NCBI GenBank assembly: GCA_964016885.1 | Contig: OZ024747.1 | Span: 46,314,001-46,378,000 of the forward strand | Length of the DNA: 64,000 bases | Direction of reading: 5' to 3' | Origin: Eledone cirrhosa | Taxonomy: Eukaryota | Part shown: positions 5,623 to 42,625 of the stretch, one piece after another | Position numbering within the stretch: position 1 is the first letter of the stretch | Layout of the letters: the number at the start of each line of letters is the position of its first letter | Position numbers and translations under genes: made by a program | Notes under the pieces: model-generated | Seen by the model: only the letters and a program-made list of their open reading frames with translations | Told to the model about the DNA's origin: nothing | Database searches by the model: none

Positions 5623-5887
5623 CGCTTTGGGTAAAATTAAAAAAATGCATTCCTTAAGTTTTTAATCTGTACTAATAATGCATATTTGTGCTCAGCGGGT
5701 TTAATATATACAACCCTTAACGAATCCTCTTTGGATTTTGGTCTTTGTATATATATATAACTAGTTACAACAGTGACATATATACAGGTATTTAAGTGTC
5801 GTTGTGTTATACACCCCAACTCATTCAGAGTGTTATATAAAATATAAATGGCTACCTCCACAGATTATTATAAAGAAGTTCCCTGTC

Positions 5888-6130
5888 TTCCATACGGGCC
5901 TATATCGTGATGACGATCTGGCATTAACGAGCCATGAAAGTGGCCATGATCTTGATTCACTGATTACTTCCTTCAACAGCCTAGGCTTAAAAATTACAAT
6001 AACTACCAACGCGATCAGTGTTAACTTCCTAAACCTTGATTTAGACCTACTTACACGCACATATTGACCATTCCATAAACCCAGTGGGAAACTTAATTAC
6101 ATTCATAATGACTCTGCCATCCCCCAATAG
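5888..6130 (+). pseudogene. Penelope-like element reverse transcriptase fragment (catalytic motif to thumb)
   Basis: GLYRDDDLAL...FNSLGLKITITTNAISVNFLNLDLDLLTRTY*PFHKPSGKLNYIHNDS matches the PLE RT pattern GLYRDDGL..F...GLKITI..N...VNFLD..LDL....Y.P+.KP.....Y+H..SNHP. In-frame stop present. Confidence 0.85.
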
Positions 6131-6886
6131 TTTAAAAAAATAAAATTGGATAATATAGTCGTAGGTTTATGTAAAAGAGACAGGAGGTTCCATGACCATA
6201 GTCTCTTTGATATTAAGTAGTTCTACTGAATTAGGGGCTCCACAGCAATAACAACTACTACTTTAACTGTATACAATTCAGAAAAATAGATTTAAATGAT
6301 TGCTGTGGACGGATAATAGCATTGAAGAATGGAATATGAATTCGGAATGTCTTTCTAAATAACACTTTCGGAATACTTGTCAATAAGGCCAGGTGCGATG
6401 TTCAATACAACTCGAATTTTGAGAAAAGTCAAATAAGGTAGTATGTACATATACGCCCTGGAGGCAGTGTCACTAACTAGCCACTCTACAATTCCCAGTT
6501 ACACCGATGAAAAGATTAAAATAAAGTAAATAAATAAAAGAGCCTTCAGTTAGTGAAACGTCACATTGTTGCGAGAATTTCTGCTGTATTCATTCTCTTT
6601 GGCATCACATCCTTAACCACTTCTTCTATAATTTTCAATATGGAGGTCATTGTCGCCTGGCATTTTCCCTCGGGCTGAACATTCGAGTGCTAAAAGAAGC
6701 AGGTTCACTAAATGAGGTTAACATACTTGCTGTTCGGTCAGATAGCCGTTAATTAAAAGAAATTTCATTCAAATGTCTTAGAATCTCAAAGCTATAGTAA
6801 TTATTCCGTTTCAAAGGTTATGCTGTTGAAGAAGCCTGAAGTTAGGTGAGGTATTGGAGGCTTCTCTTTAGTAAAGAGAGGAAAAT

Positions 6887-8481: not shown

Positions 8482-9000
8482 ATATTGTTATAATTTGGGA
8501 GGGTCATGTTGCCAATAAGAAACACACGCACCAGTTGCTTTCACTTCAATTTATTATAATAAATTTATAAATTTAGGAATTTATAAATTTCCGGTTGGTT
8601 GGTTGGTTCCACAACCAGATGGTTGTTTGTATATTGTCAAAGTTCTTTCGTCACACATTCTGTGACCTCTTCAGTCACTGGGGATTCTTTTCTTTGTTTT
8701 TGTGCTTCTTCTTTGTTCTGTCCTACGCCATCTTGTTTCTGTCACACACAGAAACAAGATGGCGTAGGAGAGAACAAAGGAGAGGCACAAAAACAAAGAA
8801 AAGAATCCCCAGTCACTGAAGAGGTCACAGAATGTGTGACGAAAGAACTTTGACAATATACAAACAACCATCTGGTTGTGGAACCAACCAACCAACCGGA
8901 AATTTATAAATTCCTAAATTTATAAATTTATTATAATAAATTGAAGTGAAAGCAACTGGTGCGTGTGTTTCTTATTGGCAACATGACCCTCCCAAAGTAT

Positions 9001-9008
<8 letters not shown>
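8482..9008. mobile_element. ~527-bp foldback palindrome carrying two opposed hammerheads, ending in (TA)n
   Basis: Arms 8482-8742 and ~8748-9008 are reverse complements with a few substitutions; 5-nt loop cacac. A diverged single-arm relative lies at 13320-13610. Confidence 0.95.
8812..8854 (+). ncRNA. Minimal type I hammerhead ribozyme (mirror copy on minus strand at 8636-8678)
   Basis: GTCA-CTGAAGA-G-GTCACA-gaatg-TGTGAC-GAAA-G-aa-C-TT-TGAC: stem I GTCA/TGAC, stem II 6 bp, 2-bp stem III, triplet CUU. Confidence 0.75.
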
Positions 9009-9453: not shown

Positions 9454-9601
9454 TCATCTATATATATATATATATATACATATATATATACGCGTCCGAA
9501 ACGTCAATACTCTCTTCCTGCTATTTCAAGCGTTAAATTAATATATTTATTTCATGTACTGCGCCGTTTGTTTTGTTATGTTATTACTTTTACATCCATA
9601 G

Positions 9602-12531: not shown

Positions 12532-12671
12532 AGAGAGAAAGAGAGAGAGCGAGTAGAGGGGTGGGGGTGATAAAGCGAAAGAAGGTAATAGAAGAAAGTG
12601 AGGTGCGCAAACAATCACAAATATATTAAATACTTTTTTATACGCACTCATTTATATATATATATATATAT

Positions 12672-13152
<481 letters not shown>

Positions 13153-17969: not shown

Positions 17970-19254
17970 CTATCTATCTAAGGCGGGTAAAATTCCCGAG
18001 ATCCATGGACGAGTTCTCTCCAGCGGTCTCTGTCCCTCATTATCGCTGCCATATCCTGCATCTCCAACAGATCAGTGTCTGTCCTTAGGGCATCAACATA
18101 TGTTAACCTTGGTCTTCCTCTTCTAGTGTGTCCATGTAGGGGCTCCCAAAGGAGCACTGAGTGCAATGTCAACTCCGGATGTCGGTGAGCATGTCCAGCC
18201 AACCTCAGTCTCCTCTGTGTCCCTTTTGAGCTGACTCTTGGGGTGCTCCCATACAGCTCTGAGTTTTTCATCCTCAGTGTATACTGATTAATGTTCAGAG
18301 CCATCCTCAACATTCTCGTGTAGCACCCATCCACCATCTGAGTGAGTTTCTTGGTCAGTGTCCAAGTCTCAGACCCATACAGCAGCACAGACTCCACTAC
18401 AGCAATGGAGAGGCGGATTTTCAGGTCTCTACGAAGGTCCGACTTCCACACCGATCTCAAGCTGTGGCACGCCGCCCAGGCCTTGCTCTTCCTCTCAACC
18501 ACATCATCCTCCGTATTCCCAATCTTTGCTCCCAAATACAGGAAGTCCTCAACCAATTCCAGCGGCTTCCCGCCTACATTAGTGATCCCCTCTGGCTTCT
18601 CAACATTCTCTACCAGATATTTTGTTTTAGTCTCATTCATTCTCAGCCCCACACTCATCGACACAGTCTCAACCTCCCGCATCAAATCCTCTGCCTCCTT
18701 CACTGTATTTGTCACCAAAACTATGTCGTCGGCAAAATCAGCATCCGATACCTTTTTCGCCCCAACTCTCCTGCTCTGAGCCGGTGCTACAGTAACAACT
18801 ACCGGGGGATCTAACTGACGTCACTTGTGGCAAAGACCCTCAACAGGATGATTCTTAACAGGATCCAGCCTGAGATGGAGAAGAAGCTCAGGGACAACCA
18901 GAACGGCTTCAGAGAGGGTAGATCAACCACCAGTCACATCCTGATGCTGAGGAGGATATTAGAGGGAGCTAGAGCAAAGTGCCTTCCTGCGGTCATGGTT
19001 TTCATTGACTTTAGGAAGGCCTTTGATTCTGTGGACCGTTACTGCCTGATGAAGATCTTACAGGCTTATGGAATCCCCAAGAGGATAGTGGACCTGATAT
19101 CACTGCTCTACACCAACACCAAAGCCCAAGTCATTACACCTGATGGGATGACAGAGTTCTTTGAGATACTGGCTGGAGTGCTCCAGGGAGATACATTGGC
19201 TCCCTACCTTTTTATCATCGTAGTGGACTATTGTATGCGCCTTGCACTGGAGAA
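17970..19254. mobile_element. RTE-clade LINE, 5'-truncated with 5' inversion; TSD ACATATAGATAT (17958-17969 / 19255-19266)
   Basis: The 3' part is on the minus strand ending in a (TAGA)n tail; the upstream RT part is on the plus strand; the junction is at ~18812. Confidence 0.92.
17978..18810 (-). pseudogene. RTE reverse transcriptase C-terminal portion
   Basis: VSDADFADDIVLV (catalytic FADD), GLRMNETKTKY, DFLYLG, VVESVLLYGSETWTL, RRLRLAGH, RRGRPRLTYVD, DRDRWRELV. Confidence 0.92.
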
Positions 19255-19257
19255 ACA
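18815..19257 (+). pseudogene. RTE reverse transcriptase N-terminal portion (inverted segment)
   Basis: KTLNRMILNRI, QNGFREGRST, FIDFRKAFDSVD, GVLQGDTLAPYLF. Confidence 0.95.
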
Positions 19258-19393
19258 TATAGATATATACCCCCATATATATATATATATAACCAAAGAT
19301 TAGTATGATTCGTTGATTACTCAACGAATACAATTTTACAATAGATTAGAAGCACACAACAGAATAAGGTTTTCCTGGAGTTTTTAATATTAT

Positions 19394-19803
19394 TCAAAAT
19401 GTTAACAAATGAAAAATATTATCATAATCAAAATATATACTTTATTATATATACTTCAAAGGTACTGTGTTTTTTTTTTTCAGTAAGTCCTCATCAGACA
19501 AAATATCTGATTTGATATATGACATACTGCTACAGTCTTGATTATTCAATTCCAGTATTAGCAGTCAATACTGGAATTGAAATATCTGCCAATATATATA
19601 TCTAAATTATCAGTCAATACTGGAATTGAAATATCTGCCAATACTGGAATTGAATAATCAAGACTGTAGCGCTATGTCATATATCAAATCATATATTTTG
19701 TCTGATGAGGACGTACTGAAAAAACAACACAGTACCTTTGAAATATATATAATAAAGAATATATTTTGATTATGAGAATATTTTTCATTTGTTAATATTT
19801 TGA
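19394..19803. mobile_element. Foldback element (~165-bp arms) with hammerhead-like cores and micro-duplicated spacer
   Basis: 19394-19559 is the reverse complement of ~19641-19803; tgt-CTGATGA-ggacgtact-GAAA...aca at 19699-19731; the spacer repeats caatactggaattgaa three times. Confidence 0.85.
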
Positions 19804-20146
19804 GTTTTGGGGGGTCTTATTCACGCAAGTGTCTAATCTTTTATTTTCTCAAACCCACGAAGACTAGGCTTTTTTTTTAGAAGCGGCCTTTACTCGCCTC
19901 GTTATAGCTACATCACTGGGTTGTGAGAGTTTTCTTGGGAGCTACAGGTGTCACCCATTGCTCCATCTCCCCTAGTAGTTTACTGCTATTCGTCCGGGGT
20001 TGCTTATTCGTCCGACAGCTACCCGCATATATTTTAAATCCCCACCATATTTGGGGGCCGTATCGCTACCCGACACCTGCAATCCGTTCTCAAGCAGAAC
20101 AGCTCTGCCGAGAATATATATATATATAAATATATGGTGATAGGGT

Positions 20147-20218
20147 GATGTATTGGTGTAAATGGTAGCACAGTGGTCTGGATAACCAAAGATGTGGGTT
20201 CGACTCCCATGTACGTCA
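20147..20218 (+). other. tRNA-like cloverleaf (probable SINE head), nominal anticodon GGA
   Basis: Acceptor GATGTAT/GTACGTC, D arm GTGT-aaatggta-GCAC, anticodon arm gTGGT-ctggata-ACCAa, T arm GTGGG-TTCGACT-CCCAT. It lacks the Ser long variable arm and runs into a repeated tail. Confidence 0.7.
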
Positions 20219-20362
20219 ATACTCATCTTTTTCCATTTCTCCGACGGTTCTTAACCCCACTATCAGGCTAAATAATTTCTTTAATTTCTTTAGTCAAAAT
20301 ACGGCGATAGCTTACATTTATAATAATTTCAAACCCGCTCGCTGTTTCGAAAAATATTCTTA
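20208..20362 (+). mobile_element. Tail shared with the 28.5-28.8 kb foldback, ending at (TA)n
   Basis: catgtacgtcaatactcatctttttccatttctccga...ttagtcaaaatacggcgatagct...gctgtttcgaaaa matches both arms at 28530-28812. Confidence 0.9.
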
Positions 20363-20436
20363 ATATAAATATATATATATATATATATATAGTGACGAAA
20401 CATAAGTCAATTGCATGAACTCATAATCCTTTATTT

Positions 20437-26364: not shown

Positions 26365-26367
<3 letters not shown>

Positions 26368-26535
26368 AGGAGTTGTGGTAAAGAACCAGATGGACCAAAA
26401 CGCACCAGAGTATTCAATACTAATAGGAAAATGTATGACCCCGACGGCAGAGCTCAAGCCATTTCGACGGCTATGTCTGTCCAGAAATAGACGTCGAAAC
26501 GGCTTGAGCTCTGCCGTCGGGGGGTCATACATTTT

Positions 26536-26540
<5 letters not shown>
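26365..26540. mobile_element. (TA)n-flanked element with 118-bp palindrome (26423-26540) made of two hammerhead 3' halves
   Basis: Right arm reads GAA-ACGGC-ttgagctct-GCCGT-C-gggg (left arm has one substitution); the centre is a stem-II-like hairpin; no CUGANGA present. Confidence 0.88.
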
Positions 26541-28510: not shown

Positions 28511-28529
28511 GTATATATATATGTAAGAA

Positions 28530-28812
28530 TATTTTCGAAACAGCGAGTGCATTTGAAATTATTAGAAATGTAAACTATCGCCGTATTTTGACTAAAGAAA
28601 TTAAAGAAATTATTTAGCCTGATAGTGGGTTAAGAACCCTCGGAGAAATAGAAAAAGATGAGTATTGACGTACATGAGTATTGACGTACATGAGTATTGA
28701 CGTCAATACTCATCTTTTTCCATTTCTCCGAGGGTTCTTAACCCCACTATCAGGCTAAATAATTTCTTTAATTTCTTTAGTCAAAATACGGCGATAGCTA
28801 ACATTTTTAATA
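28530..28812. mobile_element. Foldback of the tRNA-headed element's tail, with a 15-bp triplication at the centre
   Basis: Arms 28560-28670 and 28701-28812; centre (atgagtattgacgtac)x2 followed by atgagtattGACGTCaatactc; (TA)n on both sides. Confidence 0.9.
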
Positions 28813-28834
28813 ATATATATATATATATATATAA

Positions 28835-29021
28835 CGAAGGAAATGTGGTAAGGAACCAGGTGGACCATAACGCACCAAAGTACTCAATACTTAGGGTAGT
28901 AGAGTGGGTAATAGGAACAAGTAAGACCCCGACGGCTGAGCTCAAGCCGTTTCGACGGCTAATTCTGTACAGAATTAGCCGTCGAAACGGCTTGAGCTCA
29001 GCCGTCGGGGTCTTACTTGTT

Positions 29022-29026
<5 letters not shown>
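28835..29026. mobile_element. (TA)n-flanked element with perfect 116-bp palindrome (28911-29026) of hammerhead 3' halves
   Basis: Centre ctgtacag at 28968/28969; arms contain GAA-ACGGC-ttgagctca-GCCGT-C-ggggtc. Confidence 0.92.
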
Positions 29027-35035: not shown

Positions 35036-35089
<54 letters not shown>

Positions 35090-35091
<2 letters not shown>

Positions 35092-35277
35092 TTATTCCGG
35101 GTTGAATCGGAGGTAATCACAGTAAGTAAGGTACTCAATACATAGCAGAGTATAAAAGTTTTAATATAGAAGAGCTTCTACAAGACTAGAACTGTTTCAT
35201 TCGTGAGAAATCATCCGGAAGCTCCTGATGATTTCTCACGAATGAAACAGTTCTAGTCCTGTAGAAGCTCTTCTATA
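35090..35277. mobile_element. Second palindromic copy of the 12.7-kb hammerhead family
   Basis: Palindrome ~35164-35277; the minus arm has stem I gagcttc/gaagctc with core CGGATGA; the plus arm has an intact CTGATGA (35225-35231) with a bulged stem I. Confidence 0.88.
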
Positions 35278-42399: not shown

Positions 42400-42618
42400 T
42401 AAAATAAAATAAAATAAATAAGTCAAATGTTTAAAATTTGGCTTCGTTTATTACTGCTATATATATTTCGGTGACAGCCATCTTTGGCTGTGACCTCTTC
42501 AGGAAGTCCTAATTCGGACTGCCTGAAGAGGTCACAGCCAAAGATGGCTGTCACCGAAATATATATAGCAGTAATAAACGAAGCCAAATTTTAAACATTT
42601 GACTTATTTATTTTATTT

Positions 42619-42625
<7 letters not shown>
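42400..42625. mobile_element. ~225-bp foldback with two outward-facing hammerheads, ending in (TA)n
   Basis: Arms 42400-42509 and 42516-42625 are near-perfect reverse complements; loop taattc. Confidence 0.95.
42518..42572 (+). ncRNA. Intact type I hammerhead ribozyme (mirror copy on minus strand at 42453-42507)
   Basis: ACTGC-CTGAAGA-GGTCACAGCCA-aaga-TGGCTGTCACC-GAAA-tatata-TA-GCAGT: stem I 5 bp, stem II 10/11 bp, palindromic ATATATAT stem III, triplet AUA. Confidence 0.87.

Follow-up and report, generated by a model that had tools for sequence, protein, structure and literature searches.

A short tRNA-bearing repeat with Penelope-like insertion anatomy in the genome of Eledone cirrhosa

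Short interspersed elements (SINEs) are held to rely on LINEs; the short passengers of Penelope-like elements (PLEs) known from animals are defined by a hammerhead ribozyme of unclear role. Animal non-LTR retrozymes are described as non-coding tandem units of 150–300 bp, low in GC and proposed to be moved by PLEs, and are defined by a type I hammerhead (PMC7229834; PMC7761336; bioRxiv 10.64898/2026.07.22.740005); neither "tRNA" nor "Pol III" occurs in the main text of the preprint. The schistosome repeats Sm-alpha and Sj-alpha have a Pol III promoter inside the tandem unit, the upstream copy transcribing the next, and a hammerhead that releases monomers; the account of them in PMC6765202 does not mention insertion anatomy of PLE type. 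MRC1 and other non-autonomous Chlamys elements are non-coding, form pLTRs and lie head to tail; they belong to a clade mostly without a canonical hammerhead, they generally have the 3' sequence of an autonomous family, and their description mentions no tRNA head (PMC8557442).

Two further groups carry Pol III promoters. TRIMp3 elements (Cassandra, Helenus, and Ajax) have a promoter derived from a small RNA inside the terminal repeat, and the RNA of Cassandra runs from one repeat into the next, where it ends. The TRIMp3 are LTR elements that have a PBS, a PPT and target-site duplications of 4–5 bp and are moved by Gypsy or Copia; the word "Penelope" is absent from the text of their description (PMC10886601). 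SINEs derived from tRNA (SINE2) are non-coding, 100–700 bp long and subject to 5' truncation, with a tRNA head bearing A and B boxes at the 5' end of the element, a LINE-derived tail and LINE-type insertion.

The element described here lies in a window of 64,000 nucleotides of Eledone cirrhosa (GCA_964016885.1, contig OZ024747.1, positions 46,314,001–46,378,000, forward strand), the whole stretch of DNA that was analysed. It is a non-coding repeat of 271–272 bp with an internal tRNA-like module. Pol III probably transcribes it, and the enzymes that insert its copies into (TA)n are probably a PLE's reverse transcriptase and GIY-YIG endonuclease. The observations comprise the unit and the linkage of head to tail, two fixed 3' ends some 35–40 nt from each other, arms that are inverted and 5'-truncated, full as well as partial tandems, insertion at TA, and 5' ends in two clusters. 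It resembles retrozymes in its short, low-GC tandem units and lacks their hammerhead. With Sm-alpha and Sj-alpha it shares promoter boxes inside a tandem unit, again without the hammerhead. It is non-coding, pLTR-forming and head-to-tail like the Chlamys elements, from which it differs in its tRNA head and in that no autonomous family with its 3' sequence was found among the families sampled. The internal small-RNA-derived promoter recalls TRIMp3, without the LTR-element features of that group.

The label SINE, used in the earlier note, fits loosely. Head, boxes, size and truncation are those of SINE2; in contrast, the tRNA lies inside a circularly permuted tandem unit with two fixed ends and inverted arms, 69 of 139 heads (about half) continue upstream and 55 end at the head's 5' boundary, no LINE-like tail was matched in 1.57 Mb of fetched DNA, and the insertion anatomy is of PLE type. 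The element is likely a PLE-mobilised, Pol III-headed, ribozyme-free repeat, working like a retrozyme or Sm-alpha without the hammerhead, or like a SINE without the LINE tail. No description of a tRNA-headed PLE passenger was found in the literature; Repbase, Dfam, most subscription papers and the supplements of the 2026 preprint lay outside that search, and an unnamed entry may exist.

Table 1. Features of the element and related repeats in the window (positions counted from the first base of the window).
Feature	Position	Strand	Basis or remark
Element copy, subfamily A	20143..20362	+	Unit position 54 (common 5' boundary) to unit position 272 (long 3' end)
tRNA-like head	20147..20218	+	ARAGORN, Rfam
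A box, type-2 Pol III promoter	20154..20165	+	Read from sequence
B box, type-2 Pol III promoter	20197..20207	+	Read from sequence
T5, possible leaky terminator	20228..20232	+	Predicted pairing with A-rich end of upstream spacer
Tail	20219..20362	+	Short 3' end ~20327, long 3' end ~20362, offset 35 nt
7-nt near-duplication of the element's first bases, 5' junction	20136..20142	+	Sequence
(TA)n target, 3' side of element	20363..20391	.	Sequence
Foldback copy, left arm: long 3' end, 5'-truncated in T-stem of head	28524..28676	-	93% over 185 nt including TA
Foldback copy, right arm: short 3' end, 5'-truncated in acceptor-stem strand	28700..28814	+	97% over 115 nt
16-nt unit x 2.9, foldback centre	28658..28703	.	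Repeat array found
Separate minimal-hammerhead repeat family, 5'-truncated copy, outside the element	9493..9600	+	Common 10–12 bases at predicted cleavage site

The window copy (Table 1) begins 4 nt 5' of the tRNA, has TA-rich DNA on its 5' side as well (20113–20135), and is 95–99% identical to 47 other near full-length matches. A 72-nt tRNA-like fold with A and B boxes, claimed earlier from the letters alone, is borne out: ARAGORN calls a tRNA at 20146–20219, Rfam RF00005 matches 20147–20218 with 49.7 bits against a cut-off of 29 (E 1.2e-7), and both boxes can be seen, intact, in the sequence. The T5 lies 10 nt after the tRNA and is the sole sense-strand run of at least four T in the unit.

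Judged by its sequence, the head is unlikely to act as a working tRNA, because its "anticodon" GGA is combined with a variable loop that is short, position 37 is a U, and the anticodon stem has one mismatch. Neither an isotype-consistent tRNA body nor a close host paralogue was found, GGA occurring here without a long variable arm; among the host tRNA-like genes sampled (Thr, Gln, and one Ala-like repeat only) the best identity is 44/72. As parents of the head, Gln tRNA genes (39–44/72 identical) and a phage tRNA (best match tRNA-Trp, E 0.2, not significant) were rejected; in the Rfam search for a parent, 63 of 552,091 candidates were scored. A tRNA annotation of this genome would include hundreds of false tRNA-Ser(GGA) genes. 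Two side observations concern other repeats. Fourteen bases around the 5' start of the head recur just 3' of the tRNA part of another abundant SINE (L258; L300:3375-3388). A second dispersed element, found on several contigs (L245, L247-L255), also has an internal tRNA-like gene, with anticodons that differ among copies (GGC, GAC, AGC, GGT, GTC). Its start is constant, at TA about 307 bp upstream, and an interior part is repeated in inverted orientation further on; it looks like a DNA transposon with a tRNA mimic and not PLE-like.

The length of 216 bp given in the earlier note is wrong. Tandem copies of subfamily A have a true unit of 271–272 bp, which includes about 53 bp of spacer upstream of the tRNA, and encode no protein. 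In the 3.0-Gb assembly a 236-base query gave 2035 first-look candidates, and the 40 scored yielded 48 near full-length matches at 95–100%; a 24-base head motif has 492 exact matches, its reversed control none. The family is young, as 89 long segments have a median identity of 95% to the subfamily A reference. Subfamily B has a unit of about 262 bp, and the monomers of both subfamilies fall inside the retrozyme range of about 150–450 bp. Between one A and one B copy the head (72/72) and the next 20 nt are identical, a likeness partly biased by the retrieval of the B copy with the head, compared with 87/123 in the tail and 47/60 in the spacer. Tandem arms reach 3 units and one array has 10, with exact head-to-tail joints. 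The element also occurs, with variant spacers, in two runs of unrecorded kind (X1 and X4, on L005:1229-1772), one of them from a second organism code, which suggests more subfamilies than A and B.

Insertion anatomy was scored at 70 loci from the first 100 listed head-motif matches, 68 after removal of 2 duplicates. By an automatic rule the tail is linked to the head at 62 of the 68, two of the six failures being mis-picked inverted fragments, and the consistent joining of head to tail proposed earlier therefore holds. An inverted, 5'-truncated arm is present at 43 loci (4/107 for a conventional SINE at the same loci), and a segment longer than head plus tail at 39. The (TA)n targeting seen in the window extends to other copies: of 111 outer 3' ends, 95 have (TA)3 no more than 12 nt away, against 22/107 for the control SINE. 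These ends fall mainly into two groups, 53 at unit 271–282 (positions above 272 reading one too high owing to a one-base seam duplication in the reference unit) and 25 at unit 236–239, and paired ends are 33–42 nt apart in 23 of 43 pairs. The window holds an example, since the tail recurs there as a (TA)n-flanked foldback, as had been noted, whose left arm exceeds the right by 35 nt at the outer end.

Partial tandems, an inverted 5'-truncated copy, a tail of 30–40 bp and a TA bias are named as traits of PLE insertions, the (TA)n bias being known for Neptune, Naiad and Hydra (PMC8557442). All four are found here. The idea of a Pol III head on a PLE-moved element is thus well supported by the anatomy at more than 100 loci; the 12-bp match from which it had been argued is not its support. 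A short and a long end, both 3' of the ribozyme, are also present in the hammerhead-bearing families of this genome, and the strand carrying the tRNA is accordingly the likely RNA strand. In those families, at the loci fetched, the distance between the two ends is family-specific and runs from roughly 35–45 to about 200 nt, wider than the 30–40 bp given in the literature. At 8 of the 68 loci at least seven non-dinucleotide bases are common to both flanks, none convincing as a target-site duplication, and TA targets mask such duplications; at one locus (L026) about 25–30 flanking bases appear on either side of the element, perhaps as a long target-site duplication. Where parts of an insertion are duplicated, they seldom have rare variants in common (6 shared versus 103 unshared in tandems), which lends no support to copying from the same template.

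The 5' ends form two clusters. Among 139 heads in 126 loci, in which the tRNA starts at unit 58, the 55 that stop do so at unit 52–59 (7 of them being diverged read-through copies on inspection) and 69 run on into the spacer. Ends called at unit 51–56 number 36 and lie 5' of the RNase P site at 58; we infer that this boundary fits a Pol III start about 4 nt 5' of the tRNA better than an RNase P cut. The second cluster is in the T-arm: of 81 arms in 50 loci selected by the tail, 48 end at head positions 58–67 and just 3 at 72–73, about 15 non-inverted ends fall there as well by eye, and the centre of the window foldback coincides with it. Its 16-nt repeats are likely slippage where copying stalled in the tRNA. 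Reverse transcriptases arrest at m1A58 of tRNA, and the pile-up suggests a block to reverse transcription at the folded tRNA. The cluster lies 5–9 nt short of the A58 equivalent, on short palindromes that favour fold-back joints, and RNA structure or fold-back bias may be enough to explain it.

On the preferred reading, Pol III would start about 4 nt 5' of the tRNA and would occasionally pass the single T5 and terminate at the following unit's T5; the resulting RNA, about 1.3 units long, would have a head at each end (compare Cassandra). The PLE enzyme would use both target strands as primers, starting at two sites within the tail. Most cDNAs would halt at the folded, perhaps modified, T-arm and yield tail-only foldbacks like 28524–28814; others would reach the 5' end of the RNA and give SINE-like copies, for example 20143–20362; further cDNAs would transfer through the repeated head into copies longer than the unit, which are potential new masters. 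The tRNA module would set the ends of the RNA, the role of the hammerhead in retrozymes. Against the scheme, a T5 so close behind the tRNA would be expected to terminate most Pol III transcripts short of the tail.

The main alternative for the multimers, compatible with PLE dependence and in our view rather unlikely, keeps the same PLE enzymes and supplies as template a circular unit-length RNA, whose ends would be held on one helix, ligated without a ribozyme and copied by rolling circle. It would account for the exact head-to-tail joints, the arms of up to 3 units and the 10-unit array, and retrozymes circularise with RtcB (PMC7229834). A 12-bp clamp with a 4–5-bp stem is predicted, in which the strand that follows the tRNA pairs with the end of the spacer and with the 5' leader; in this model the pairing of T5 with the spacer would set both ends of a unit-length RNA side by side. 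Relative to shuffled sequences the whole unit folds only modestly better (z -1.55), and the 216-nt RNA has no extra stability (z -0.17). Differences between the subfamilies in the spacer strand are A-to-G changes that keep the pairing; A-to-G opposite U, however, often keeps pairing by chance. When pairs were counted over 121 copies, truncated copies contaminated the columns of the spacer. A pure circle, moreover, gives no stop at the 5' end of the tRNA, where about 48–55 of the 139 heads stop, and no enzyme for the precise 3' end is evident. Copying of a linear Pol III transcript remains the preferred reading.

The earlier note linked the element to a putative hammerhead cleavage site at about 9498. 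That hammerhead is real: the site belongs to a 5'-truncated member of a minimal-hammerhead family, and its full core plus junction has 16 genome matches against 2 for a control (1269 first-look candidates). The link itself is weak. A 12-mer is indeed common to 9501 and 20213, at the family's predicted cleavage site and at the 3' end of the element's tRNA respectively, and the 17-mer at 9498 occurs once in the genome. The nearest relatives of the 9498 copy have differences inside the 12-mer, and 1777 of 2000 dinucleotide-shuffled elements match some 12-mer of the window, with 578 of the 2000 matching one that has at least five G/C. Beyond the common 10-mer, seven of eight hammerhead-family copies align with the element no better than chance (z -1.75 to 1.41), and the copy in the window, the eighth, reaches z 2.28; whole units do not align (z -0.89, -1.33). 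A common origin of the element and this family at the junction is in our view rather unlikely. The family also occurs as a 259-bp tandem (L376), as expected of a non-LTR retrozyme, and other foldbacks in the window, of different families, have hammerhead cores on their arms (8486–9004, 12659–12864, 19394–19803, 35076–35273, and 42402–42623).

In the element itself the exact hammerhead core CUGANGA is absent from both strands of both subfamilies, and an Rfam scan of an array (E up to 10) returned the tRNA matches and one unrelated match of 15 bits, with no ribozyme. A scrambled or variant hammerhead was rejected, a core with one mismatch being present only on the sense strand of subfamily B, without stem I. 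The element could still be the relic of a PLE-moved retrozyme, its tail being the part of the pLTR 3' of the cleavage site, its tRNA body a replacement of the ribozyme and the junction bases a remnant. The exact position of the common bases speaks for this origin, as do similar unit sizes (259 versus 262–271) and a distance of 110 nt from the site to the short end, like that of two hammerhead families. Past those 10–12 bases, however, there is no significant likeness, 12-mer matches are common by chance, this tail follows 0 of 16 intact hammerhead cores, and the few ends at head positions 72–73 make no peak at the site; we consider a relic as doubtful as a circle.

It is improbable that the tRNA is a passenger, with Pol II reading through the tandems and host RNase P or RNase Z setting the ends. 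The cloverleaf is intact and is followed by T5 as in an ordinary tRNA gene, yet the 36 ends called at unit 51–56 lie upstream of the RNase P site, and no peak of 5' ends follows the discriminator base. That the element is a normal SINE dependent on LINEs, with foldbacks and tandems formed secondarily as DNA events in unstable (TA)n, is very improbable and already largely refuted: the window copy alone does resemble head plus tail, and plain flank around TA is also inversely duplicated at one locus (L027), but this reading is contradicted by the two fixed ends at constant offset, by the excess of inverted arms over the conventional SINE at the same loci, by the spacer upstream of the head and by the failure to match any LINE 3' end in the 1.57 Mb fetched.

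PLE-dependent copying of a Pol III transcript has a wider form, which we put forward tentatively and hold possible with the balance against it. The element would represent a class of its own among PLE parasites, one that corresponds on the Penelope side to SINEs and TRIMp3 and has a tRNA module in place of the hammerhead, supplying a Pol III start; a self-splinting helix would join the ends for ligation or template jumping without a ribozyme, and the 5' ends in the T-arm would be a record of tRNA-type modification blocking the PLE reverse transcriptase. A Pol III-headed passenger without a ribozyme suggests that PLE enzymes need defined RNA ends and not ribozyme chemistry. At 271 bp and with its priming and stop points mapped (two of each), the element offers a compact substrate for studying the mechanism of tandem, inverted and tailed PLE insertions, which PMC8557442 names as unresolved.

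The description of the tail as Penelope-like finds no support in sequence homology. Across 1.57 Mb of fetched DNA (390 sequences) the only matches to a tail profile were copies of the element itself. This DNA includes LINE fragments and PLE ends of Neptune, Penelope/Poseidon and Hydra type, and it samples a small part of this genome's PLE families, with no Naiad copy among them; a LINE 3' end, which would have spoken for a SINE, was not matched there either. The same profile found only the element's own copies in 97 PLE, hammerhead-family and tRNA loci plus the window, and in 30 Hydra loci; BLAST of the unit against 50 GIY-YIG loci gave nothing at E 1, three published octopus Naiad 3' ends have no tail homology by eye, and the DNA upstream of 20 hammerhead-family copies holds no linked PLE frame. 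No autonomous partner was thus found among the sampled families.

PLEs are nonetheless abundant here, with 10,597 GIY-YIG candidates and frames combining reverse transcriptase and GIY-YIG confirmed by Pfam; in all of the best 30 GIY-YIG matches the nuclease is at the C-terminus. One Neptune-type pair has ends roughly 35–45 nt apart by eye, which makes a Neptune-type family the first guess for the partner. Cephalopod Naiads are described as long inactivated (PMC8557442). A young Hydra-type family (L319, G000:C1:437199000-437208900) has an intact frame of 784 aa and 3531-bp tandems 99.97% alike; its ends are offset by 83 nt (9 of 16 pairs), versus 35–40 for the element. Hydra-type proteins resemble a published octopus family, and the hammerhead of the Hydra-type family seems, by eye, to have U for the first core C.

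In two places (L320:9505-9793 and L322:2872-2903) Hydra-type copies truncated near the same reverse-transcriptase motif are joined head to head to the element without TA. In one of them the element lies at the joint of a two-armed Hydra insertion that was already present; in the other the fragment is a mirror image of the copy next to it. Later insertion or flank foldback can explain both junctions, and co-insertion is possible. The window itself holds the Hydra-type end as short foldbacks at 28830–29023 and 26365–26537, a decayed Hydra-type reverse-transcriptase fragment at 5879–6202, and LINE reverse-transcriptase fragments at 17981–19300, where 17981–18820 (minus strand) and 18815–19300 (plus strand) form a 5'-inverted LINE insertion.
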